DNA from: Candidatus Moranbacteria bacterium GW2011_GWA2_39_41
GTDB taxonomy: Bacteria; Patescibacteriota; Minisyncoccia; Moranbacterales; UBA2206
Length of the DNA: 53,034 bases
Direction of reading: 5' to 3'
Assembly: GCA_000995125.1 (NCBI GenBank)
Contig: LBXA01000002.1
Span: forward strand, 1-53,034
Shown here: positions 17,544 through 52,796 of the stretch, in pieces
Layout: every line of letters starts with the position of its first letter
How positions within the stretch are numbered: the stretch's first letter is position 1
Program-made: the position numbers and the translations under genes
The notes under the pieces: generated by a model
Seen by the model: only the letters and a program-made list of their open reading frames with translations
The model's database searches: none
What the model was told of the DNA's origin: nothing

Positions 17544-19631
17544 TTATTTCAATTGTAACTTACGCAATTGCGAAATTTCATCCCGAATAACAGCCGCTTT
17601 TTCAAATTGCAAAGCCTTGGAAGCCACTTTCATTTCTTTTTCTTTTTGTCGAATGTAGCCCTGCACATCTTCCAATGATTCCAATTCCGAAAAGTCTCGT
17701 GTGAATTCTGGCTTGATTTCGTGATCCACAATTGATTCAATGTTTTTCTTGATAGTTTGTGGCGTGATATGATGTTTTTTATTATACGCTGTTTGCACCG
17801 CCCGCCGACGATTGGTTTCATCAATGGCACGCTTTATGGAGCCCGTGATTTTGTCGGCATACAAAATCACTCGCCCAGAAACATTGCGAGCCGCCCGCCC
17901 GATCGTTTGAATGAGAGATGTCTCACTGCGCAAAAAGCCTTCTTTGTCGGCATCCAAAATCGCCACTAGCGAAACTTCTGGCAAATCCAGTCCTTCGCGC
18001 AAAAGATTGACACCCACCAAGACATCAAATTCTCCACGCCGCAAATTTTCCAAAATCCGAATGCGATCCAAGGTGTCCACATCAGAATGCAGATAGTCCG
18101 TCTTGATACCATTTTCTTTCAAAAATTCTGACAAATCCTCCGCCATTTTTTTGGTCAGCGTTGTGATCAAAACTCGCTCCTGCTTGGCCACCACTTTTTC
18201 AATCTCTGGCAAAATATCTTTCACCTGTCCTTTAGCCGGCTTAATAATCACCTCTGGATCTATTAATCCGGTTGGTCTAATTATTTGTTCGATAACACCA
18301 TTCCCAAATTCTATATTTTGTTTGTAATTTGTGATTTGTGATTTGGAGTTTGTTTGTGATTTGTTTTTTGTGATTTGTGATTTTTCCAACTCATACACAC
18401 TCGGTGTTGCCGATGTAAATATAACTTGATTCAATTTTGATTCAAATTCACTAAACTTAAGTGGTCGATTGTCATAGGCACTTGGCAAACGGAAACCATT
18501 GTCCACCAAAGCTGTCTTACGCGAAAAATCTCCATTAAACATCCCGCCAATTTGCGGAATGGTCACATGCGATTCATCTACCACCATCAAAAAGTCTTTG
18601 GGGAAATAGTCAATCAAAGTGTCTGGCGCTTCCCCAGCATTTCTGCCCGTCAAATAGCGTGAATAATTTTCAATCCCGTTGCAATAACCAATTTCACGCA
18701 TCATTTCAATGTCTTGGCGTGTTCGGCGGAGAAGTCTTTCCGCTTCCAAAAGCTTGCCAGCCTTTTTCAACAGCGCCACTTGTTTTTCCAAATCTTTTTC
18801 AATCGAGCTTTGCGCTTCTTGCATAATTGGTTTCGGCACCACAAAATGCTTGGCCGGAAAAATCATCACTTGTTCCAATTTGCCCAGCTCCGCGCCCGTC
18901 AAAAAATCATATTCAAAAATCTTCTTTACCCCGTGAAATTGTGCCCTAGGCACACCGGCTTTGCCTGATTTCACTGGGGTTTCATCAATCATGCCAAGCT
19001 CAATACGTGTCACAACTTCTCTTGCGGGTGACATAATCTCCACCGTCTCACCCGTCATGCGAAATTTGGAACGACCCAACATGTCTGTGCGCAAATATTG
19101 CATCTCAATCAATTCTTTAGAAATTTCTTCCCGCGAAATATTTTGCCCCACTTTGATTTCCATCGCAATGTCACGATAATATTCCGGTGAACCCAAACCA
19201 TAGATACAAGAAACGGACGCCACAATAATCACATCCCTGCGTGACAGCAAAGCCGCGGTGGATGCATGACGCAGCCGATCAATCTCTTCATTGATTTGTG
19301 ATTCTTTTTCAATATAAGTGTCGCTGGATGCAATATAGGCTTCCGGCTGATAGTAGTCATAATAGGACACGAAATATTCCACCGCGTTCTTCGGGAAAAA
19401 AGTGCGAAACTCCTGCGCCAACTGCGCCGCCAAAGTCTTGTTAGGCGCAATGACCAAGGTTGGTTTTTGCACTTGCTCAATCACGTTGGCAATCGTAAAA
19501 GTTTTCCCCGACCCCGTCACGCCCAAAAGTGTCTGGAATTTCTGCCCAGCCTGAAGCCCCGCCACCAATTTTTCAATCGCTTGTGGTTGATCCCCCGCTG
19601 GCTTATATTTAGAATTAATTTTGAATCGCAT
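17544..19631 (-). CDS. uvrB: excinuclease ABC subunit B
   Basis: Walker [11 protein letters not shown], the [13 protein letters not shown] hairpin region, helicase motifs, and a C-terminal UVR domain. It carries an in-frame low-complexity insert. Confidence 0.95.
18317..18385 (-). repeat. degenerate CAAATCA heptamer array in frame within uvrB
   Basis: The sense strand carries repeated CAAATCA / CAAATTA units encoding [23 protein letters not shown]. Confidence 0.85.
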
Positions 19632-26057: not shown

Positions 26058-26077
26058 CCTGCCTGCCGGTAGGCAGG
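26058..26077. repeat. 20-nt GC-rich palindrome CCTGCCTGCCGGTAGGCAGG (copy A)
   Basis: It differs by one base from the perfect palindrome at 26981-27000. A TATAAT box lies at 26081-26086, and ATG 26099 is 22 nt downstream of the palindrome. Confidence 0.85.
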
Positions 26078-26098
26078 GATTATAATTCTAAATTTGTA

Positions 26099-26821
26099 AT
26101 GGCAATAACTATTATGATTGATCCACTGCCGAGTCTCAGAAAATTGAGAGACATCTATGAAAAGATAGATAAGGCTAAAAAGAATCACATCAAATTATCA
26201 ATAACTATTCTCATGCTGAGCATGGGGCTATTTTTTTACTTTGTATCTGACAATCAGGCTTTGGCTCGCAAGAATGAAGAGCTTTTGAAAGTTGCACCAG
26301 AAACCATTGATCCGCTATATAAAATTGGCAAAGGCCTGCAAATGGTTGAGTGTGCTAAGAACAGTTCTTGTGCTAAAGAAATTTTGGCACCAACGCATAT
26401 TGTTGAGGTTGATAATTCAATTTTAGCTGAAACAGTGGGCGACTCTCCAATGGCTGAGATGGTGCCGGCCTTGAAACAGAGAAGTAAGGAGGTGTCAGCC
26501 TATTTGGTTGCGATTGCTAAGAAAGAGAGTGACTGGGGCAAGCATTCGCCGAAGAAAGGTGGCAAAGAATGTTTCAATTATTGGGGTTATCGTGGCAAGG
26601 AAGACACCACAGATTCTGGTTATAGCTGTTTTGATTCTCCAGATCATGCCGTTTCAGTAGTTGGCGACAGAATTGAAAAGCTTTTAGATCAAAACATCAA
26701 GACACCAGCACAAATGGTAGTTTGGAAGTGTGGCAGAGATTGTGAAGCCGCTGGCGGACAAGCCGCAGCTAACAAATGGATCTCGGATGTTAAGCGATAT
26801 TATGATAAACTAAACTCATAA
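26099..26821 (+). CDS. membrane-anchored protein with a C-terminal GH73-like domain, paralog 2
   Basis: TM helix LSITILMLSMGLFFYFV. The C-terminal domain AIAKKESDWGK...NYWGYRG...GGQAAANKWISDV is clearly homologous to 25513-25896. Confidence 0.6.
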   Translation: MAITIMIDPLPSLRKLRDIYEKIDKAKKNHIKLSITILMLSMGLFFYFVSDNQALARKNEELLKVAPETIDPLYKIGKGLQMVECAKNSSCAKEILAPTHIVEVDNSILAETVGDSPMAEMVPALKQRSKEVSAYLVAIAKKESDWGKHSPKKGGKECFNYWGYRGKEDTTDSGYSCFDSPDHAVSVVGDRIEKLLDQNIKTPAQMVVWKCGRDCEAAGGQAAANKWISDVKRYYDKLNS

Positions 26822-26980: not shown

Positions 26981-27000
26981 CCTGCCTGCCGGCAGGCAGG
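26981..27000. repeat. 20-nt perfect palindrome CCTGCCTGCCGGCAGGCAGG (copy B)
   Basis: Exactly self-complementary (10+10). Confidence 0.9.
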
Positions 27001-27060
27001 GAAACGCACTTCGCAAGGCGCGGAATTATTTTTTTAAAACTAACTAAAAACAAAATCTAT

Positions 27061-27511: not shown

Positions 27512-28789
27512 ATGATGAATAAATTTCCAGCAGGGTTTTTGTGGGGTGCAGCGACTTCCGGGCATCAAGTTGAAGGCAATACTAATAACGATTGGGTTCA
27601 GTGGGAGAAGGACAATGCTGAGAGAATTGCTGGGGAGGCTAATAAGAAGTGGGAAAAGTGGCAACAGGAAAAATTTCCCGAAATGTTCACGGTGGAAAAT
27701 TATATTTCTGGCCAAGCTTGCGACCAATATAATCGATATGCAGAAGATTTTGATTTGGCAAAAGCTGGTGGACACAATGCCCATCGATTGTCTTTGGAAT
27801 GGGCAAGAATTGAACCGAAAGAAGGAGAATTTAGTGCAGAGGGAATTGAACATTATCGAAAAGTTTTGACAGCTTTACGTGAGAGGGGATTGGAACCATT
27901 TGTAACCTTGTGGCATTGGACTGATCCAATTTGGGTCGGAGAGATGGGCGCTTGGGGCAACAAAGAAACAGTTAAATATTTCCATAGATATGCTGAGCGG
28001 GTTTTCAATGAATATAAAGATTTAGTAACATTTTGGATGCCACTCAATGAACCAAATACTGAAGTGTCGTTGGGCTATATGTTTGGCAATCAACCGCCAG
28101 GAATCAAAAGTAAACTTGCGGCCAACACCGCTTTCAAAAATTTGATGCAAGTTCAGAAAGATATCTATCAGGTTGCCAAAGCAGTTTCACCGGATTTTCA
28201 AATTGGCTGTTCGCATTTTATGTTCGATATAAAATCCCATAATCGCCTGCCATGGAATGTTTTGGCGACTAAGATTATGGATTATTTTGCCAACTATCGT
28301 TTTTTCAAAGCTTTCAATGATTCTTGTGATTTTTTTGGTATCCAATATTATCAATCATTTCATGTCAATTTCAGAATAGGTGGAAAATTCTTCGGACTTT
28401 TTGAAAATAAAGAAGTTTCAGAAAAAAGAAGTGATTTGGGTTGGCAGATTTATCCAGAAGGAATTTATAATGTGCTGACAAAGGCCGCCAAGAATGGAAA
28501 ACCTATTTATATAACTGAAAATGGACTAGCCGATGCGACTGATACCTATCGTTCCGAATTCATTCAAGAGCATCTGAAATATGTTCAAAAGGCGATTGCT
28601 GATGGCGTGGACATTCGCGGTTATTTCCATTGGTCACTAATAGACAACTTTGAATTTGTAGAAATGCGCGGGTTCTGGCCACGCTTTGGTCTGATAGAAA
28701 TCGATTACAAAACATTAGAGAGAAAGCCAAGAAAAAGTTTTTATGTTTATAAAGAGATAATTGAGAATAATGGGATAAAAGGGGAATAA
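27512..28789 (+). CDS. glycoside hydrolase family 1 (beta-glucosidase-like)
   Basis: FLWGAATSGHQVEG, the acid/base motif LNEP, and the nucleophile motif ITENG. Confidence 0.9.
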   Translation: MMNKFPAGFLWGAATSGHQVEGNTNNDWVQWEKDNAERIAGEANKKWEKWQQEKFPEMFTVENYISGQACDQYNRYAEDFDLAKAGGHNAHRLSLEWARIEPKEGEFSAEGIEHYRKVLTALRERGLEPFVTLWHWTDPIWVGEMGAWGNKETVKYFHRYAERVFNEYKDLVTFWMPLNEPNTEVSLGYMFGNQPPGIKSKLAANTAFKNLMQVQKDIYQVAKAVSPDFQIGCSHFMFDIKSHNRLPWNVLATKIMDYFANYRFFKAFNDSCDFFGIQYYQSFHVNFRIGGKFFGLFENKEVSEKRSDLGWQIYPEGIYNVLTKAAKNGKPIYITENGLADATDTYRSEFIQEHLKYVQKAIADGVDIRGYFHWSLIDNFEFVEMRGFWPRFGLIEIDYKTLERKPRKSFYVYKEIIENNGIKGE

Positions 28790-29022
28790 GGGGTGAAAGG
28801 GGCTGAAGGGGTGAGAAAAAGGGAGGGAAGGGGAATAAAGGGTGAAAAGGGAGAAAGGGATTGAAAGGGTGAGGAAAGGGGAGGAAGGGTAAGGAAGGGT
28901 GAGAGAAAATAAGATGAGATTTCCCATTCTAACATTCCCTTTAAACCCTTTTGCAACCCATTTAAATTCCCATTATATCCCATTACAATTCACTTTAAAT
29001 TTATAATCCCAGTAGTCCCTTT
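28770..29022. repeat. purine-rich GGGNAAA word array followed by its C-rich complement
   Basis: 28770-28905 carries repeated GGGGAATAA, GGGTGAAA and GGGAGAAA words. 28921-29022 carries TTCCCATT, TTCCCTTT, AACCCTTTT and AACCCATTT words. The left arm overlaps the last codons of the GH1 gene. Confidence 0.8.
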
Positions 29023-35228: not shown

Positions 35229-35330
35229 TAACTCGTAACTAGTAACTCGTAACTAGTAATTGGAGCGTCAGCTTATTAATTGGTTTATTTGTAATTTGTG
35301 CTAGTTACTGATTACCAGTTACTAGTTACT
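35229..35330. repeat. heptamer word-array hairpin in the infC-rpmI spacer
   Basis: The left array is (AACTCGTAACTAGT) x2, perfect. The right array is five heptamers CTAGTTA / CTGATTA / CCAGTTA / CTAGTTA / CTTAGTT, the approximate complement. Confidence 0.85.
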
Positions 35331-35334
35331 TAGT

Positions 35335-35889
35335 TTATACTTCTGGAGTTAGCACAGCATTAAAGCCACTCGGATATCTTTTCACTTCCTGATCAAGCTT
35401 GAAGGGGACAGTGATTGTTTTCAGAAAATCTTCCAGGTTCTTGCGAGCTAAATCTTGATGAGCTTTTTCTCGGCCACGCAAGAAAATTTCAACTTTCACT
35501 TTCTGACCTTTAGTAAGGAATTTTTCAGCCATGTCTTTCTTAACTTCCAAATCATGCGTGTCAGTTCGGAAACCAATACGAATCCCTTTGATATCAATCT
35601 TTTTTTGTTTGGCTTTGTTAACTCGATCAAGCCTAGATTGTTGATATTGATATTTGCCATAATCCATGATTTTGCAAACCGGTGGCTTGGCCATCGGCGC
35701 AATTTCCACTAGATCCAAATCTTGCTCGCGGGCAATTTGCAAAGCATCAAGCGGAGCCATAACCCCAAGTTGATTTCCCGCATCGTCAATTACGCGAATT
35801 TGTGGAACTCTAATGTGTTCATTTATTCTGGTGAGCGGACCCCTTTTTACGAACGGCCGCCTGATTGGTACTCTTCTAATATTTTTGAT
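35335..35889 (-). CDS. infC: translation initiation factor IF-3, non-AUG start
   Basis: Conserved IF-3 sequence (RINEHIRVPQIRVIDDAGNQLGV) continues upstream of the first ATG. That frame opens after TAA with no ATG/GTG/TTG. Candidate starts are ATC (35889) and ATT (35880). Confidence 0.9.
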   Translation of the reverse strand: MKNIRRVPIRRPFVKRGPLTRINEHIRVPQIRVIDDAGNQLGVMAPLDALQIAREQDLDLVEIAPMAKPPVCKIMDYGKYQYQQSRLDRVNKAKQKKIDIKGIRIGFRTDTHDLEVKKDMAEKFLTKGQKVKVEIFLRGREKAHQDLARKNLEDFLKTITVPFKLDQEVKRYPSGFNAVLTPEV

Positions 35890-35905
35890 ATTAAATAATT
35901 ATTTG

Positions 35906-36317
35906 TGGAGTTGATGGGAATCGCACCCATGTCCAAAATCATTCATCTAAAACAATCTACAAGCGTAGTTTACTTATTTGTTTCGATTGAAAAGTGATAA
36001 GCAAACAAAACCTTTTCAATCTATGACTAATGAAGTTTTATCGAATTGACTTAGAAAATATCAGATCGACTATCCTGATGTTTTGACACCGAATCCCATC
36101 TATCAGGAGTTGATGGTTCGATGACTACTGCGATAGCGCTGATTAGGCGATATTTAGGCAATAGCAACCGCAAAATTTGAAGTAAATGCTTGCGCAAATA
36201 CTGATTTCGCTTTTGTTATGAAGTTTGCACTTATAACTTTGATACAAATTTAACGAGGAATTATCATACTCGGCTTGCATATTTTAAATGTACGACCTGT
36301 CGAAACTAAGCAACCCC
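35906..36317 (-). ncRNA. ssrA: tmRNA (SsrA)
   Basis: 5' GGGGTTGCTTAGTTTCGACAGG. 3' T-arm ATGGG-TGCGATT-CCCAT, then CAACTCC-A. The acceptor stem has a G3-U pair. The putative tag frame GCA AAC TTC ... GCC TAA runs from 36228 down to 36154. smpB is adjacent. Confidence 0.9.
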
Positions 36318-36763: not shown

Positions 36764-36767
36764 GCGA

Positions 36768-36903
36768 GCATATTAACATTTAAGCATATTAGCATATTAG
36801 CACAGCGAGGGGATAATATGCCAGTAGATTACTAATGTTAAAATGTTCATATGTTAATATGCTAACGTGCTAATATGCTAACGTGCTAATATGTTAACGT
36901 GTT
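36768..36903. repeat. octamer word-array inverted repeat in the divergent smpB/argS spacer
   Basis: The left array is GCATATTA-ACATTTAA-GCATATTA-GCATATTA-GCAC. The right array is GTTAATAT plus (GCTAACGTGCTAATAT) x2 plus GTTAACGT. TAGCATATTAGCAC and GTGCTAATATGCTA are perfectly complementary. Confidence 0.85.
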
Positions 36904-36944: not shown

Positions 36945-38636
36945 ATGAAAAAGAAACTGGCGGAAATCATCAAAAAGGCTGTTTTGGAGCTGTTTGACCT
37001 TGAGCAAGCTGATTTTGCCGTGGAATATCCAAAAGATGAAAAATTTGGAGATTATGCGACTAATGTTGCGATGGTTTTGGCGAAAAAGTTGGGGAAGAGC
37101 CCGATGGAGATTGCTGAGGCAATCAAATTACAAATTACAAATTACAAATTACAAACTTTTGAAAAGATTGAGGTGGTGGCGCCAGGGTATATCAATTTTT
37201 ATTTGTCAGAAAAATATTTTCAAAATAAGGTTGTTGAAATAAATTTAGAGAAAGAAAAGTTTGGAGAAGGAGAAGCTGAGAAAAAGGAAAAAATAATGGT
37301 TGAATATTCTCAACCAAATACACTTAAGGAATTTCATATCGGTCATTTGCGGAATGTTTTGATTGGTTCGACCATCGTTGAGGTTTTACGCAAGGCTAAA
37401 TATAACGTAGTGGCAGCTAATTACATTGGCGATACTGGCTCTCACATCGCGAAGTGTTTGTGGGGGATTGAGAAATTTCATGCCAATGAAAATTTAGATG
37501 CAATTGAAAATAAAGCTGAATTTCTAGGTAAGACATATACTCAGGCAGTGCAGGCAATTGGAGAAAATCCTAATTATGAACAAGAGTTTAAATCTTTGCA
37601 AAATAAACTAGAAGATGGGGACATCAAATTGCAGGCATTATGGCAAAAAACTAGACAATGGTCATTGGATGAATTTCACTCAATCTATGAATTGTTAGGT
37701 GCCAACTTCGATGTCTATTTTTATGAAAGTGAGGAGGAGATTGAAGGCAAGAAGATAGTGCCAGAGTTGTTAGAAAGAAAAATCATTGAAAAGAGTGAAG
37801 GGGCAATTATTGCAAATCTTGAAGAGTATGGATTGGGCGTATTAGTGCTTGTTAGAAAAGACGGTAGTGCTTTGTATGGACTCAAAGACATTCCCTTGGC
37901 AATTAAAAAATTTGATAAATTTGAAATTGATACTAGTATATATCTAATCGATGTTCGTCAGGATTTATATTTCAAACAGTTGTTCAAGATTTTGGAATTG
38001 TATGGATTTAATAAAAAATTTGTTCATATTGGATACGATTTTGTTACCTTGAAAGGTGGAGAGGGAATGTCATCAAGAAAAGGGAATGTTATTTTGGCGC
38101 GTGATCTTATATCTGAAATTATCAGTAAGGTTGAGGTTAAGTTTCCAAATTCTCCAGATCCACTATCAATTGCGTTGGGTGCTTTGAAATTCACAATGCT
38201 CAAATATTCTACTGGCACAAAAATAGAGTTTGATATTGAAGAATCGGTTAAATTGGAGGGAGCAACTAGTCCCTATGTTCAATATGCACATGCTAGAATC
38301 TGTAGTATTTTGAAAAAAGCAGAGGAGGCAGGAGTTGATTTTGCTAAGGCAGATTTGTCGTTACTTATCCACGAAAAAGAGCTTAGTTTAGCTAAGGAGC
38401 TGGATAAATTCCCAGAACTTATTGAAGAAATATCGAAAACTTATGAAGTTCAAAAAATTCCATATTATGCTATTAGGTTGGCTGACAAATTCCATTCATT
38501 CTACAGTGCTTGCAAAGTGATTGACGAGGAGAATTTGGAATTGACCAAAGCGCGTTTGAATTTGATAACGGCGGTGAAGATTGTGTTGGCAGAAACTTTG
38601 AATTTGATTGGCGTGAGCGCGCCAGAAAAAATGTAA
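36945..38636 (+). CDS. argS: arginyl-tRNA synthetase
   Basis: HIGH-type motif FHIGHLRN and a class I core with a DALR anticodon-binding C-terminus. Confidence 0.95.
   Translation: MKKKLAEIIKKAVLELFDLEQADFAVEYPKDEKFGDYATNVAMVLAKKLGKSPMEIAEAIKLQITNYKLQTFEKIEVVAPGYINFYLSEKYFQNKVVEINLEKEKFGEGEAEKKEKIMVEYSQPNTLKEFHIGHLRNVLIGSTIVEVLRKAKYNVVAANYIGDTGSHIAKCLWGIEKFHANENLDAIENKAEFLGKTYTQAVQAIGENPNYEQEFKSLQNKLEDGDIKLQALWQKTRQWSLDEFHSIYELLGANFDVYFYESEEEIEGKKIVPELLERKIIEKSEGAIIANLEEYGLGVLVLVRKDGSALYGLKDIPLAIKKFDKFEIDTSIYLIDVRQDLYFKQLFKILELYGFNKKFVHIGYDFVTLKGGEGMSSRKGNVILARDLISEIISKVEVKFPNSPDPLSIALGALKFTMLKYSTGTKIEFDIEESVKLEGATSPYVQYAHARICSILKKAEEAGVDFAKADLSLLIHEKELSLAKELDKFPELIEEISKTYEVQKIPYYAIRLADKFHSFYSACKVIDEENLELTKARLNLITAVKIVLAETLNLIGVSAPEKM
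37124..37156 (+). repeat. (CAAATTA)4 + CAAAC heptamer microsatellite in frame within argS
   Basis: Four perfect tandem heptamers at 37124-37151 encode KLQITNYKLQ. Confidence 0.9.
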
Positions 38637-44285: not shown

Positions 44286-45485
44286 ATGCAGTTAATGAAA
44301 TCAGGCTCTACTATGAAGAAAACTTTCGAAATATTTAGTAAAAATAAGCTGGCTCGAGTTGGAAAACTCAGAACGAAAAACGGAGAAATAAACACTCCGT
44401 TTTTTATGCCAGATGCTACGCGTGGATTTATAAAATTATTATCCAAGCATGATTTAGAAGGCATAGGCGCTAGACCGATGGTGGTTAATACCTATCATTT
44501 ATATCTTCAGCCGGGTATGGAGCTCATAAAGAAAGGTGGAGGCATTCATAAATTTATGAATTGGGATGGCCCCTTGCTTTCTGATTCCGGTGGATATCAA
44601 ATTTTTTCTTTGATTCATAAAAATTCAAAATTGGGTAAAATAACAGATGAGCAAGCAGTTTTCAAATCCCCAATAGATGGTAGAAAGCATGAATTGACCC
44701 CAGAAAAATCTATTCAGATTCAGTTTGATTTGGGCGTGGATATGATGGTTGTTCTGGACGATGTGCCACCAGTTACGTATTCTGATAGAAAGATGAAAGT
44801 GGCAATAGACAGAACTATATCATGGGCAAAGCGCTGCAAAATTGAATATGAAAAACAGATTCAGGAGCGAGGAATTGCAAAAGATCAACGCCCATTGCTT
44901 TTTGGCGTAATTCAAGGTGGGAAAGATGCGGAGCTCCGAAAATATTGCGCGCAAGAGTTGGTTAAATTGGATTTTGATGGCTATGGTTTTGGCGCGCGGC
45001 ATGTGGATGAGAACGGAGTTTTTATGCAGGAGATGGTGGCGGAAACTGCCAAGATGATTCCGGAAGACAAATTGCGCTTTGCGCTAGGTGTCGGCACACC
45101 AGAAGATATTGTGCGATTTGTCGCTTGTGGCTGGGATATGTTTGATTGTGTGATTCCGACGCGTGAAGGTCGGCACGGCCGATTGTTCATTTGGGATGAA
45201 CAATCGGAATTTACAAATCTCAAATCTCAAATTACAAATAAAATTCAAAATTCAAAATCCAAATTACAAAAATCTTTCTACAAGACAATTAACATCAATA
45301 ACCATAAGTTCAATGACGATTTTTCTCCAGTGGATACATTTTGTGATTGCGAACTTTGTCGCAATCATTCACGCGCCTACTTGCGGCATCTTTTTGTCAG
45401 CAAAGACCCATTAGGCATGCGGTTGGCCGCAATGCATAATTTGAAGTTTTATTTAGATTTGATGGAAAAATTGAGAGCTACATGA
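44286..45485 (+). CDS. tgt: queuine tRNA-ribosyltransferase
   Basis: TPFFMPDATRG, DSGGYQ, VIQGG, DMFDCVIPTREGRHG, and the Zn motif CDCELCRNHSRAYLRHL. An alternative start is ATG 44313. Confidence 0.93.
   Translation: MQLMKSGSTMKKTFEIFSKNKLARVGKLRTKNGEINTPFFMPDATRGFIKLLSKHDLEGIGARPMVVNTYHLYLQPGMELIKKGGGIHKFMNWDGPLLSDSGGYQIFSLIHKNSKLGKITDEQAVFKSPIDGRKHELTPEKSIQIQFDLGVDMMVVLDDVPPVTYSDRKMKVAIDRTISWAKRCKIEYEKQIQERGIAKDQRPLLFGVIQGGKDAELRKYCAQELVKLDFDGYGFGARHVDENGVFMQEMVAETAKMIPEDKLRFALGVGTPEDIVRFVACGWDMFDCVIPTREGRHGRLFIWDEQSEFTNLKSQITNKIQNSKSKLQKSFYKTININNHKFNDDFSPVDTFCDCELCRNHSRAYLRHLFVSKDPLGMRLAAMHNLKFYLDLMEKLRAT
45214..45274 (+). repeat. degenerate CAAATNN heptamer array in frame within tgt
   Basis: CAAATCT x2, CAAATTA, ..., CAAAATT, CAAAATC, CAAATTA encode [20 protein letters not shown]. 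Confidence 0.85.
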
Positions 45486-46208: not shown

Positions 46209-47546
46209 ATGAGGAATAAAAGTAAAAAAATTGAGCTTTTGGCGCCGGCGGGGAATTTGGAAAAATTGAAGTATGCCATTGCTTATGGCGCGGACGCGGT
46301 TTATGCCGGAGTGCCGGATTTTTCATTGCGGGTGCGAATCAACAATTTTACACAGGAAACTTTGCAAGAAGCAGTGGAGTATACACATAAGCATAAAAAG
46401 AAAATTTTTGTGACTTTGAATATTTATGCGCATAATGTGCATTTAGACGAAATCAAGAAACACTTGAAGTTTTTGAAAACTTTGGATATTGATGGCGTGA
46501 TTGTAGCTGATCCGGGAATTATAATGCTCGTGAAAAAATATTTGCCGAAAGTTGAAATTCATTTGTCCACCCAAGCTAATGCCACAAACATTGAGGCGGT
46601 CAAATTTTGGGCTAAAGTTGGCGTGAAAAGAATTGTGTTGGCTCGAGAAGTGTCACTTTCTGAAATTCGTGAAATCAAAAAAGCCGTGCCGAAAATGGAA
46701 TTGGAATATTTTATTCATGGCGCGATGTGCATGAGCTATTCTGGTCGTTGTATTTTGAGTAAGTGGATGAGCAATCGCAGTGCTAATCTGGGTGATTGTA
46801 CACAACCATGTCGCTGGCTGTATGGCCAGAAATCCGAAATCTTAATTTCTAAATCCAAAATAAATCCAAAATTACAAATCCAAAATTTAAAAAATTGTGA
46901 AGGAGCTGATGATTGTGAGGTGTTGACTACTAGTGTTATGGATAATCAAAATAAATTTGAGGTTGATTTGGAAGAAGATCGGCATGGCACCTATTTTTTC
47001 AATAGTCGCGATATGAACTTGTCCGCCCACATCCAAGACCTAATTGATGCTGGCGTTGATTCATTGAAGATCGAAGGGCGAGCCAAGAGCGTCTATTATG
47101 TGGCAGTTGTTGTTAGGTCATATAGAAAAATTATTGATGCTAGCAATAAGAAAAATTTCAAACAAGTTGTTCGCGAGCAACAGAAGGAATTGAATATGTT
47201 GTCTAACCGTGGATATTCTAAGGGGTTTTTGTTGGGTTCGGAACCGGAACATAATTTTGCAGGCGCATTGAGTGAGACGCCATATAAATTCGCAGCGCAG
47301 GTTGAAGGCAAGAAAAAAATTGCTGGAAAAGTTTTAAATATTATTTTTATGCATAATGAAATATTTTTGCAAGATAATTTGGAAGCGATTAGTCCCAAGG
47401 GTAATGAAAAAATTAAAATTAAGAAAATTCTGAATCCCAAATTGGAAGAAGTACTAGAAGCCCATGGCGGTCATGAGAAGAGATTTTCAATGCAATTTAA
47501 TAAGATTTTAGCAGAAAAAACTTTGCTACGACGAAAATTGACTTGA
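46209..47546 (+). CDS. peptidase U32 family protein (RlhA/TrhP-type RNA hydroxylase family)
   Basis: ELLAPAGNLEKLKYAIAYGADAVY, a TIM-barrel-like core, and the Cys cluster GAMCMSYSGRCILS...CTQPCRW. It carries a low-complexity insert. Confidence 0.85.
   Translation: MRNKSKKIELLAPAGNLEKLKYAIAYGADAVYAGVPDFSLRVRINNFTQETLQEAVEYTHKHKKKIFVTLNIYAHNVHLDEIKKHLKFLKTLDIDGVIVADPGIIMLVKKYLPKVEIHLSTQANATNIEAVKFWAKVGVKRIVLAREVSLSEIREIKKAVPKMELEYFIHGAMCMSYSGRCILSKWMSNRSANLGDCTQPCRWLYGQKSEILISKSKINPKLQIQNLKNCEGADDCEVLTTSVMDNQNKFEVDLEEDRHGTYFFNSRDMNLSAHIQDLIDAGVDSLKIEGRAKSVYYVAVVVRSYRKIIDASNKKNFKQVVREQQKELNMLSNRGYSKGFLLGSEPEHNFAGALSETPYKFAAQVEGKKKIAGKVLNIIFMHNEIFLQDNLEAISPKGNEKIKIKKILNPKLEEVLEAHGGHEKRFSMQFNKILAEKTLLRRKLT
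46840..46906 (+). repeat. AAATCCAAAAT 11-mer array in frame within the U32 gene
   Basis: Perfect copies lie at 46861-46871, 46872-46882 and 46886-46896. A one-mismatch copy lies at 46840-46850. The array encodes ISKSKINPKLQIQNLK. Confidence 0.85.
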
Positions 47547-47668: not shown

Positions 47669-49957
<2,289 letters not shown>

Positions 49958-52676: not shown

Positions 52677-52796
52677 AATTTTCAATTTTCAATTCACAAT
52701 TTTCAAACAATTTTCAAGGATTAAATTTTCAATAAGTTTGGAAATTTGGACATTATGAATTGTTTAGAAATTAGAAATTGGTAATTAAAAATTACC
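52677..52796. repeat. AATTTTC heptamer array and partially complementary TAGAAAT array in the tRNA spacer
   Basis: Five AATTTTC copies and one variant lie at 52677-52730. TAGAAAT x2 lies at 52765-52778. A GGTAATT-AAA-AATTACC hairpin lies at 52780-52796. Confidence 0.75.

Follow-up and report, generated by a model that had tools for sequence, protein, structure and literature searches.

We found that the gene argS in a 53,034-nucleotide (nt) stretch of Candidatus Moranbacteria bacterium GW2011_GWA2_39_41 (GenBank assembly GCA_000995125.1, contig LBXA01000002.1; the whole stretch is called the window hereafter) carries a perfect heptanucleotide microsatellite that is translated in frame. This array is probably one case of a lineage-wide habit of heptanucleotide simple sequence repeats (SSRs), whose slippage-type turnover is filtered by selection in genes. 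Microsatellites whose unit length is indivisible by three are textbook gene breakers; bacteria usually purge them from coding sequence or put them to use as ON/OFF switches. The bacterium is of a groundwater type with a tiny genome, and in this minimal-genome lineage coding heptamer arrays are stably translated in housekeeping enzymes, where microsatellites reshape protein loops in a manner that has been little described.

The array, (CAAATTA)x4.6, lies at 37124-37155 on the plus strand (Tandem Repeats Finder, TRF: period 7, 4.6 copies, 100% matches), inside an argS gene at 36945-38636 on the same strand, which encodes an arginine--tRNA ligase of 563 amino acids (aa) with the Pfam domains Arg_tRNA_synt_N, tRNA-synt_1d and DALR_1. 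The best homologs of this protein are annotated as Candidatus Moranbacteria arginine--tRNA ligase, and the top non-self match is 77% identical. As a first-pass annotation made from the sequence had claimed, the array is perfect and in frame: the translated open reading frame (ORF) runs through it as KLQITNYKLQ, and together with the following AAAC it forms an 11-codon slot, KLQITNYKLQT, that corresponds to ArgS residues 61-71. Alignment with the E. coli enzyme gives a net gain of only about 2 aa in this region. In the AlphaFold2 model, residues 61-66 end a helix (53-66), residues 67-71 make a turn and a strand (72-78) comes next, at a predicted local distance difference test score (pLDDT) of about 90 for the array block and a whole-protein mean of 93. 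With a helix end and a turn predicted at this confidence, the argS microsatellite appears to code for a folded part of the N-terminal domain, and in the model it is not a loop insert.

Period-7 arrays are far commoner in the window than base composition predicts. Against 100 dinucleotide-preserving shuffles of the window, with exact arrays counted from 2.5 copies upwards, we observed six arrays of period 7, compared with a mean of 0.04 (maximum 1) in the shuffles, and array counts close to the shuffle expectation at periods 4-6. A looser criterion (at least 18 of 21 self-matches at a given period, periods 5-11) returned six regions at period 7 and none at any other of these periods or in the shuffles. 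Period 8 is also above chance in the window (2 observed, 0.02 expected), and the divergent intergenic region between smpB and argS (36767-36901) holds 8-nt repeats, AGCATATT, with the near-complement TAATATGCTAACGTGC (x2.9) 40 nt further on, that is, an inverted array set.

Related in-frame arrays had also been described for uvrB, tgt and a U32 peptidase gene, and all of them were found in place, both in sequence and in translation. In uvrB (17544-19631, minus strand; 695 aa; Pfam UvrB, Helicase_C, UvrB_inter, ResIII and UVR), a degenerate array with the sense units CAAATCA, CAAAAAA, CAAACAA and CAAATTA occupies 18317-18385 on the minus strand (TRF period 7, 9.4 copies). The queuine tRNA-ribosyltransferase gene tgt (44286-45485, plus strand; a 399-aa ORF with Pfam TGT at E=4e-120, called as a 396-aa gene from 44295 in locus L001) contains two adjoining arrays detected by TRF at 45211-45274 on the plus strand, CAAATCT x2.7 with CAAATTA, and AAAATTC x2.7 with AAATCCA and AATTACA, which include exact period-7 runs at 45214-45232 and 45240-45258. 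The Peptidase U32 family gene (46209-47546, plus strand; 445 aa; Pfam Peptidase_U32 and Peptidase_U32_C) carries at 46840-46906, on the plus strand, an A-rich array of AAATCCA and AAATCCAAAAT units (TRF periods 7, 11 and 14), in which periods of 7 and 11 nt are combined and which is translated as SKSKINPKLQIQNLKN. The hosts had been called four essential genes; this holds for argS, the only one of them that is essential in the usual sense, and not for uvrB, tgt and the U32 gene, which are normally dispensable.

The idea of a single family built on the word CAAAT did not survive, as heptamer arrays with other units are also present. A (AAAAACC)x4.1 array lies in frame in ligA at 48426-48454 on the plus strand (TRF; exact run 3.4 copies), an inverted intergenic pair, (TAACTMG)x4.4 and (CTAGTTA)x4.9, separates infC from rpmI at 35229-35335 (TRF), and the plus-strand arrays (AATTTTC)x4.3 and (TTAGAAA)x4.4 occur between tRNA-Met and tRNA-Asp at 52677-52794 (TRF). 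The units of the infC-rpmI pair contain stop codons on both strands. On the minus-strand transcript, this pair folds into a long hairpin (-33.1 kcal/mol, z=-6.1) inside the infC-rpmI-rplT operon, with infC at 35335-35760 on the minus strand, and a regulatory or terminator-like role of this hairpin is possible. An Rfam scan of the window matched only the transfer-messenger RNA (tmRNA) and three tRNAs, and no RNA family at any array.

Simple arithmetic accounts for much of what the coding arrays have in common. Seven and three have no common factor, and translation therefore enters the unit of a 7-nt array at each of its seven positions in turn, whichever of the three frames is used. The result is always the same cyclic 7-aa peptide, here (QITNYKL)n, with a period of seven residues because three units complete one cycle. 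The earlier argument that coding arrays tolerate only net length changes in multiples of three bases is correct. Reading in all phases also means that a coding array stays open only if its cyclic unit is free of TAA, TAG and TGA. CAAATTA, CAAATCA and CAAATCT are stop-free, and the complement of each is closed by a stop in every frame. We enumerated all 2340 heptamer necklaces for stop content: of the 146 units with at most one G or C, 46 contain no stop codon, and just 8 of these are open on both strands. In A-rich units, an AA-run is preceded by C in 46 of 58 cases if the unit is stop-free, compared with 62 of 267 cases for all units, and a C is favoured before the A-run because T-A-A and T-G-A are stops. 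The A-rich strand is indeed the sense strand for every in-gene array, as first pointed out, but since the complements hold stops in every frame this bias cannot serve as an orientation signal. The shared resemblance to CAAAT and the common orientation are thus largely forced by stop avoidance and are not evidence of common descent. That the intergenic arrays use stop-containing units is what general array formation combined with a coding filter predicts. The stop-free-in-seven-phases rule therefore predicts both the sequence family and the orientation of the arrays, and explains part of the lineage-specific insertions in these proteins.

In UvrB, Tgt and U32, the arrays are in-frame insertions at permissive sites of conserved proteins, which are not shared with unrelated bacteria and vary strongly among Moranbacteria orthologs, in line with the first proposal. 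Alignment of UvrB to solved structures in the PDB gives a clean 24-aa insert at residues ~420-443 (query 419 to 444 against chain 405 to 405), most of which is made up by the array. The Moranbacteria baseline in the length distribution of 120 UvrB orthologs is 652 aa, compared with 695 aa in the window. About half of these 120 homologs lack the insert; in the others, precisely this junction is filled by peptides of the heptamer type or by translated small palindromic elements. A second UvrB insert of 18 aa (residues 213-230, ~18942-18995, minus strand), in the UvrB interaction domain, is non-repetitive and is absent from the solved structures and from the orthologs in two related loci (L086, 94% identical; L087, 85% identical).

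In Tgt, about 28 extra aa lie between the equivalents of residues 297 and 300 of the Z. mobilis TGT structure. In the AlphaFold model (mean pLDDT 88), residues 311-324 of this insert are the only internal segment with a pLDDT below 50 and sit at a beta-hairpin tip flanked by strands 296-300 and 329-333. Heptamer-encodable peptides, for instance SNFQFPISNFQ, KSQIPNKIQNPKSK, GEFKIQNSKFKVK and GELKVKSEKLKVK, were found in 41 of 120 Tgt homologs, compared with 2 in shuffled controls, and 138 of the 148 matches fall within residues 280-319. The U32 protein contains about 30 extra aa just after the conserved CxQPCRW motif, at query residue ~206, where most of 150 homologs break; this insert was mapped by homolog alignment, as the protein had no match among solved structures at E<=1e-10. 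The slot in ArgS is hypervariable in length and sequence among 120 homologs, and a scan for heptamer-encodable peptides placed the ArgS hot spots at residues ~60-70 and ~457-486. The proposal that the arrays are tolerated in surface loops thus agrees with the low-confidence hairpin tip of Tgt and fails for the helix end and turn predicted in ArgS.

The habit extends beyond this genome. Among 80 genome loci retrieved through ArgS alignment, we counted 7.3 exact period-7 arrays per 100 kb in Moran-like loci and 3.7 in other Candidate Phyla Radiation (CPR) or unclassified loci, compared with 11.3 in the window, 0 in Bdellovibrionota and Chloroflexi loci (235 kb) and about 0 in shuffles. The arrays are common yet patchy across the CPR loci, the richest of which hold 7 arrays in 8.4 kb (L008), 6 in 12.7 kb (L063) and 4 in 21.7 kb (L002). 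Roughly three quarters of 50 listed arrays lie in long ORFs, with sense units that include AAATTAC, AAAATTC, AAATTCC, AATTTCC, AACTTAC, AAATTCG, AACTTAG and AAAAGTC. Four exact CAAATTA units occur in at least 120 metagenome contigs. Among the matches listed, 41 of 126 CAAATTA arrays lie in open frames of at least 150 codons on the CAAATTA strand; for the in-ORF arrays, 4-5 copies are usual and 33-34 nt is the modal length, whereas intergenic ones reach 18 copies. Hosts of the in-ORF arrays include IleS, ArgS at its second hot spot, and TsaD-like proteins and glycosyltransferases, each with three cases at a single site.

Comparison with relatives points to a rapid turnover of the arrays. The closest relative of the window, the syntenic metagenome-assembled genome GCA_030645735.1 (loci L086 and L088), shares 91%, 86% and 94% aa identity with the window in Tgt, U32 and UvrB, respectively. 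It lacks the uvrB array (L086) and the tgt array (L088), and its U32 site (L088) holds a different, shorter array, (AAGTCCA)x4.4. Conversely, it carries arrays that are missing from the window, (CCAAATC)x4.9 in ileS and (ACGCAAA)x10 in uvrC. The latter, at 15413-15520 of L086, is followed in frame by (GATCCAC)x4.4 and is the largest in-gene heptamer array among those seen. The more distant relatives L087 and L089 have arrays homologous to those of the window, and the tgt array is common to the window and L089. A difference in unit-level homogenisation separates the window from these relatives, AAAATTC AAAATTC AAAATCC against AAAATCC x3. At the empty uvrB site of L086, the ancestral K-S-Q codons AAA TCA CAA equal 1.3 units of the array unit AAATCAC, which suggests that the uvrB array was seeded locally from ancestral codons.

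The ArgS slot offers the clearest view of this process. In many lineages its DNA amounts to four units and five further bases, and the unit differs: the window has AAATTAC x4, L008 the same unit (a CAAATTA array) with one synonymous change, L002 a perfect AACTTAC x4, and degenerate arrays are of the types AAGTCCA (L003), AGCTTYC (L004), AAMTCGC (L005), GTCATCA (L009) and ATAAAGW (L015). In L088, where the N-terminal ~300 nt of argS are about 90% identical to the window, the slot is a perfect (CAAGTTA)x4.4. Each of the four differences between this array and that of the window affects the homologous position of a unit, against 28 differences over 180 flank positions; under independent mutation, this pattern has P~1e-6. 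Comparison of the sequences shows in this way that the arrays of the ArgS slot evolve in concert. Together with the perfect (CAACTTA)x4.4 of L002, the slot provides three perfect alleles, CAA[A/C/G]TTA, in the window (A), L002 (C) and L088 (G), which are translated as KLQITNYKLQ, NLQLTTYNLQ and KLQVTSYKLQ, respectively. One nucleotide change per unit hence leads to three residue changes, all of them conservative (I/L/V, N/T/S and K/N), and makes the slot a clean natural example of concerted evolution in a coding microsatellite. Within one cluster of ArgS proteins with at least 90% identity, the slot is either (AAGTTAC)x4, with the lead-in GAGGCAATC as in the window and L088, or (GTCATCR)x4. 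Since two different arrays occur within one cluster, whole array alleles must be exchanged or replaced between close relatives.

The argS gene of L088 (1514-3103) is also a mosaic relative to the window: its first ~300 and last ~200 nt are 86-93% identical and its central catalytic region about 40%, so that the protein of 529 aa is 51% identical overall, compared with ~85-94% for neighbouring genes. This pattern indicates that recombination replaced the core of an aminoacyl-tRNA synthetase gene.

These observations are probably best explained by a general mutational process with a coding filter. Slipped-strand mispairing or template switching on 7-nt units would create heptanucleotide microsatellites and turn them over throughout the DNA, in genes as well as in spacers. 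An event inside a gene would survive only if it changed the net length by a multiple of three, and the all-phase stop filter, together with the availability of permissive, length-variable sites, would decide which coding arrays persist. In-frame contraction and re-expansion by three units, short-patch recombination between alleles, or both could keep the arrays homogeneous. The encoded peptides would mostly be neutral passengers, in Tgt and UvrB as disordered surface excursions and in ArgS as a replaceable helix end and turn.

Several points weigh against this explanation. Plain slippage leaves unexplained the strong preference for period 7 over periods 8 and 9, the latter of which is in frame, as well as the first growth of a 7-nt array in an essential gene, in which a step of one unit is lethal; the modal size of about four units is likewise left unexplained. 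The 21-nt length polymorphism suggested by the first-pass annotation was looked for and not seen directly: the only other contigs with an identical ArgS come from an independent assembly of this population and show 100% identity over 21.7 kb, and length variants in clusters of at least 90% identity are terminal differences, presence or absence of palindromic elements, or the whole-array swap, with no 7-aa step. Searching metagenomes for the argS flanks at variable distance from each other gave no matches. Overall, presence and absence, unit replacement and concerted unit change were seen, and no copy-number variants of the same unit. That stop avoidance wholly forces the word CAAAT holds only in part, as the exact word occurs in only 9 of the 71 allowed A-rich units, and some genome-specific unit preference therefore remains. 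The non-CPR control set is small (235 kb). Finally, a slot of about four units in many lineages, with three perfect arrays, could reflect selection for something.

Some of these points would be met by a dedicated heptamer-writing process: 7-nt units would come in bursts from an enzyme (such as a stuttering primase or polymerase, or a reverse transcriptase that copies a short template) or from a repair pathway. We consider such a process unlikely, although bursts of about four units would account for the modal size of ~33 nt and for a one-step appearance in essential genes. The extreme specificity for period 7 compared with 8 and 9, the sharp edges of the in-ORF arrays with their modal 33-34 nt among the matches listed, the identical unit in many unrelated proteins on at least 120 metagenome contigs and the patchy occurrence of heptamer-rich genomes within the CPR are all consistent with it, and a preference for four units has also been reported for heptamers in Xanthomonas and Nostoc (PMC4692102). 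However, no candidate enzyme or template was identified, the units are very diverse within and between genomes, the uvrB unit equals local ancestral codons, which suggests local seeding, and intergenic copy numbers among the matches listed decay smoothly from 4 to 18, as slippage predicts. Equally speculative is the combination of a CPR heptamer-specific generator with short-patch recombination, which would give rise to circulating, interchangeable array alleles such as the CAA[A/C/G]TTA series of the ArgS slot. If true, such a combination would drive the innovation of protein loops in ultra-small genomes in a way not recognised before.

We are similarly doubtful that the arrays are selected for a function, be it as evolvable loops and disordered regions, as has been suggested for the tandem repeats of Borgs, or at the nucleic-acid level, as sites for cold-shock-type proteins, mRNA structure or pausing. 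In most Moranbacteria lineages about four units fill the ArgS slot, whose three perfect alleles differ by unit changes that alter residues only conservatively, the inverted pair of intergenic arrays folds very stably into a hairpin, and CspB binds heptamer repeats with one protein per heptamer (PMC4679880). Yet the closest relative, at 86-94% aa identity, does without the uvrB and tgt arrays and has another array in U32, roughly one in two UvrB orthologs lacks an insert, and units, lengths and even the type of insert, including palindromic mini-elements, vary freely at the same sites. Moreover, the Tgt insert is predicted to be disordered, and no shared sequence motif is conserved.

A shared inserted element had been proposed as the alternative to tolerated mutational debris; the debris part of that proposal agrees with repeats at permissive sites, and the shared element does not. 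A mobile in-frame insertion element carrying the CAAAT array in one orientation, comparable to Rickettsia palindromic elements (RPEs) or miniature inverted-repeat transposable elements (MITEs), is largely refuted and, in our view, very improbable. Like the RPEs, the arrays add peptide segments in frame to essential proteins of a reduced genome, at surface sites that permit them; four genes of this genome contain similar units, and the same sites in relatives host dispersed palindromic mini-elements, one of which is also found in ligA of the window. Unlike the RPEs, the heptamer arrays are non-palindromic, their ends are not conserved, and they do not represent copies of a single dispersed sequence. 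Among the matches listed, the flanks of 113 unique CAAATTA arrays hold at most 0.4 bit per position, the boundaries fall at all seven rotations, and neither palindromes nor target duplications were found; the repeats are direct and not inverted, the orientation bias is accounted for by stop codons, and the intergenic arrays of the window use unrelated units. Least probable of all is that the arrays are contingency loci like those of host-adapted pathogens, in which the 7-nt unit would switch genes ON and OFF by frameshift: a unit length indivisible by three and a place inside ORFs are the architecture of phase-variable genes (PMC4692102, PMC4679880), but argS is indispensable, the hosts ArgS, UvrB, Tgt, U32 and LigA are cytoplasmic housekeeping enzymes rather than surface or host-interaction proteins, the arrays sit mid-gene, the independent assembly is identical and in frame, and no frameshifted allele occurs, every allele among 360 orthologs of ArgS, Tgt and UvrB being in frame.

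Systems described elsewhere come close to these arrays, with marked differences. As cited in PMC4679880 and PMC4692102, Mrazek et al. (2007) found heptanucleotides to be the most abundant class of long SSRs in many prokaryotes and polymerase slippage was proposed as their origin. The CPR arrays share the features of this class in identity and frequency: head-to-tail 7-nt units, few copies and a period-7 excess. The heptamer SSRs described so far are mostly intergenic, and SSRs that are not a multiple of three are disfavoured in coding regions (PMC4692102), whereas about three quarters of the arrays in the CPR loci lie in frame in conserved housekeeping genes, at recurrent sites. Similar in period and in copy number (typically 2-6, with four preferred in Xanthomonas and Nostoc) are the TAACTGA heptamers, the short tandemly repeated repetitive (STRR) heptamers of cyanobacteria and the GGGNATC repeats of Xanthomonas and Nostoc (PMC4679880, PMC4692102). 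The TAACTGA heptamers of Beggiatoaceae, cyanobacteria and Bacteroidetes are translated as LSVISYQ in one orientation and contain stops in the other (PMC4679880), and SSVISHQ-type peptides occur in Moranbacteria ArgS, too. In these heptamer systems, one unit dominates per lineage, mainly near gene starts and ends, and regulatory roles were proposed (PMC4679880, PMC4692102). The CPR arrays, by contrast, belong to another phylum, have many units per genome, show no link to gene ends and occupy enzyme cores and loops; the 53-kb window alone holds at least eight distinct heptamer units, and five of its six exact arrays are mid-gene.

The Asn/Lys-rich low-complexity inserts of Plasmodium proteins and the perfect amino-acid tandem repeats of Borgs resemble the CPR arrays in the AT-rich genome, in loop inserts rich in K, N, Q, S and T that are probably disordered, in rapid turnover and in repeats that are perfect at the nucleotide level. 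Their units are multiples of a codon, virtually all divisible by three in Borg ORFs (PMC9879509), whereas the 7-nt units found here are read in all phases and pass a stop filter.

Within the library that could be searched, we found no account of coding heptamer arrays in CPR bacteria or Patescibacteria. What differs from the described cases is the CPR lineage, the predominance of translated arrays in housekeeping enzymes, the hot spots shared with palindromic elements and the concerted-evolution series of ArgS. The 7-aa periodic peptides, such as QITNYKL, SNFQFPI and KSKIQNS, provide a footprint for searches of protein databases. As the array segments will disturb alignments, phylogenies and structure models of CPR proteins, masking them is worthwhile.

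The palindromic elements mentioned above deserve a description of their own. A 21-nt palindromic mini-element, CCTGCCTGCCGGYAGGCAGG, occurs at 26058-26078, 26981-27001 and 48459-48479 (3 observed, 0 expected). Two copies flank the ORF at 26099-26821, and the third lies in frame in ligA, directly after the AAAAACC array, where it encodes the peptide LPTGRQ. In other Moranbacteria, the inserts at the Tgt and UvrB hot spots contain translations of this element (LPTGRQ, LAYRQAG and LPTGQAG), and it therefore behaves like a mobile hairpin of the repetitive extragenic palindromic (REP) or RPE type; dispersed copies, conserved ends and a hairpin, the hallmarks of RPEs and MITEs that the heptamer arrays lack, are all present in it. 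At 48019-48052, ligA also contains two tandem, translated perfect palindromes of 15 nt (GGGGACTAAGTCCCC and GGGGACTTAGTCCCC), 4 nt apart, which judging from their sequence probably represent another in-frame hairpin insertion. The ArgS, Tgt and UvrB hot spots of further homologs (for example P0043, P0065, P0140, P0159, P0246 and P0318) hold translations of widespread palindromic repeats, with families such as CHSERSEESL, HPELVSGSQEMLKRVQHD, VETHCNASL/GVETRHASSL, ETQFIASKK...DAIKRVST, PLPEGEGG and VIASEAKQSRN...LPRNDK. Some of these translations are nested in heptamer arrays (P0296, P0294, P0272 and P0135).

Elsewhere in the window, a G-tract array of about 140 nt at 28765-28908, with GGG or GGGG every 8-10 nt (TRF periods 9, 10, 30 and 58), marks the 3' end of a glycosyl hydrolase gene. 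It is directly followed by about 100 nt of regularly spaced CCC tracts (28920-29020), upstream of an ORF of the 23S_rRNA_IVP family, and for these tracts a G-quadruplex or a long, imperfect hairpin is a possible structure. The tmRNA gene lies at 35903-36317 on the minus strand (Rfam, 143.6 bits), directly downstream of smpB, and encodes the tag peptide ANFITKAKSVFAQAFTSNFAVAIA.

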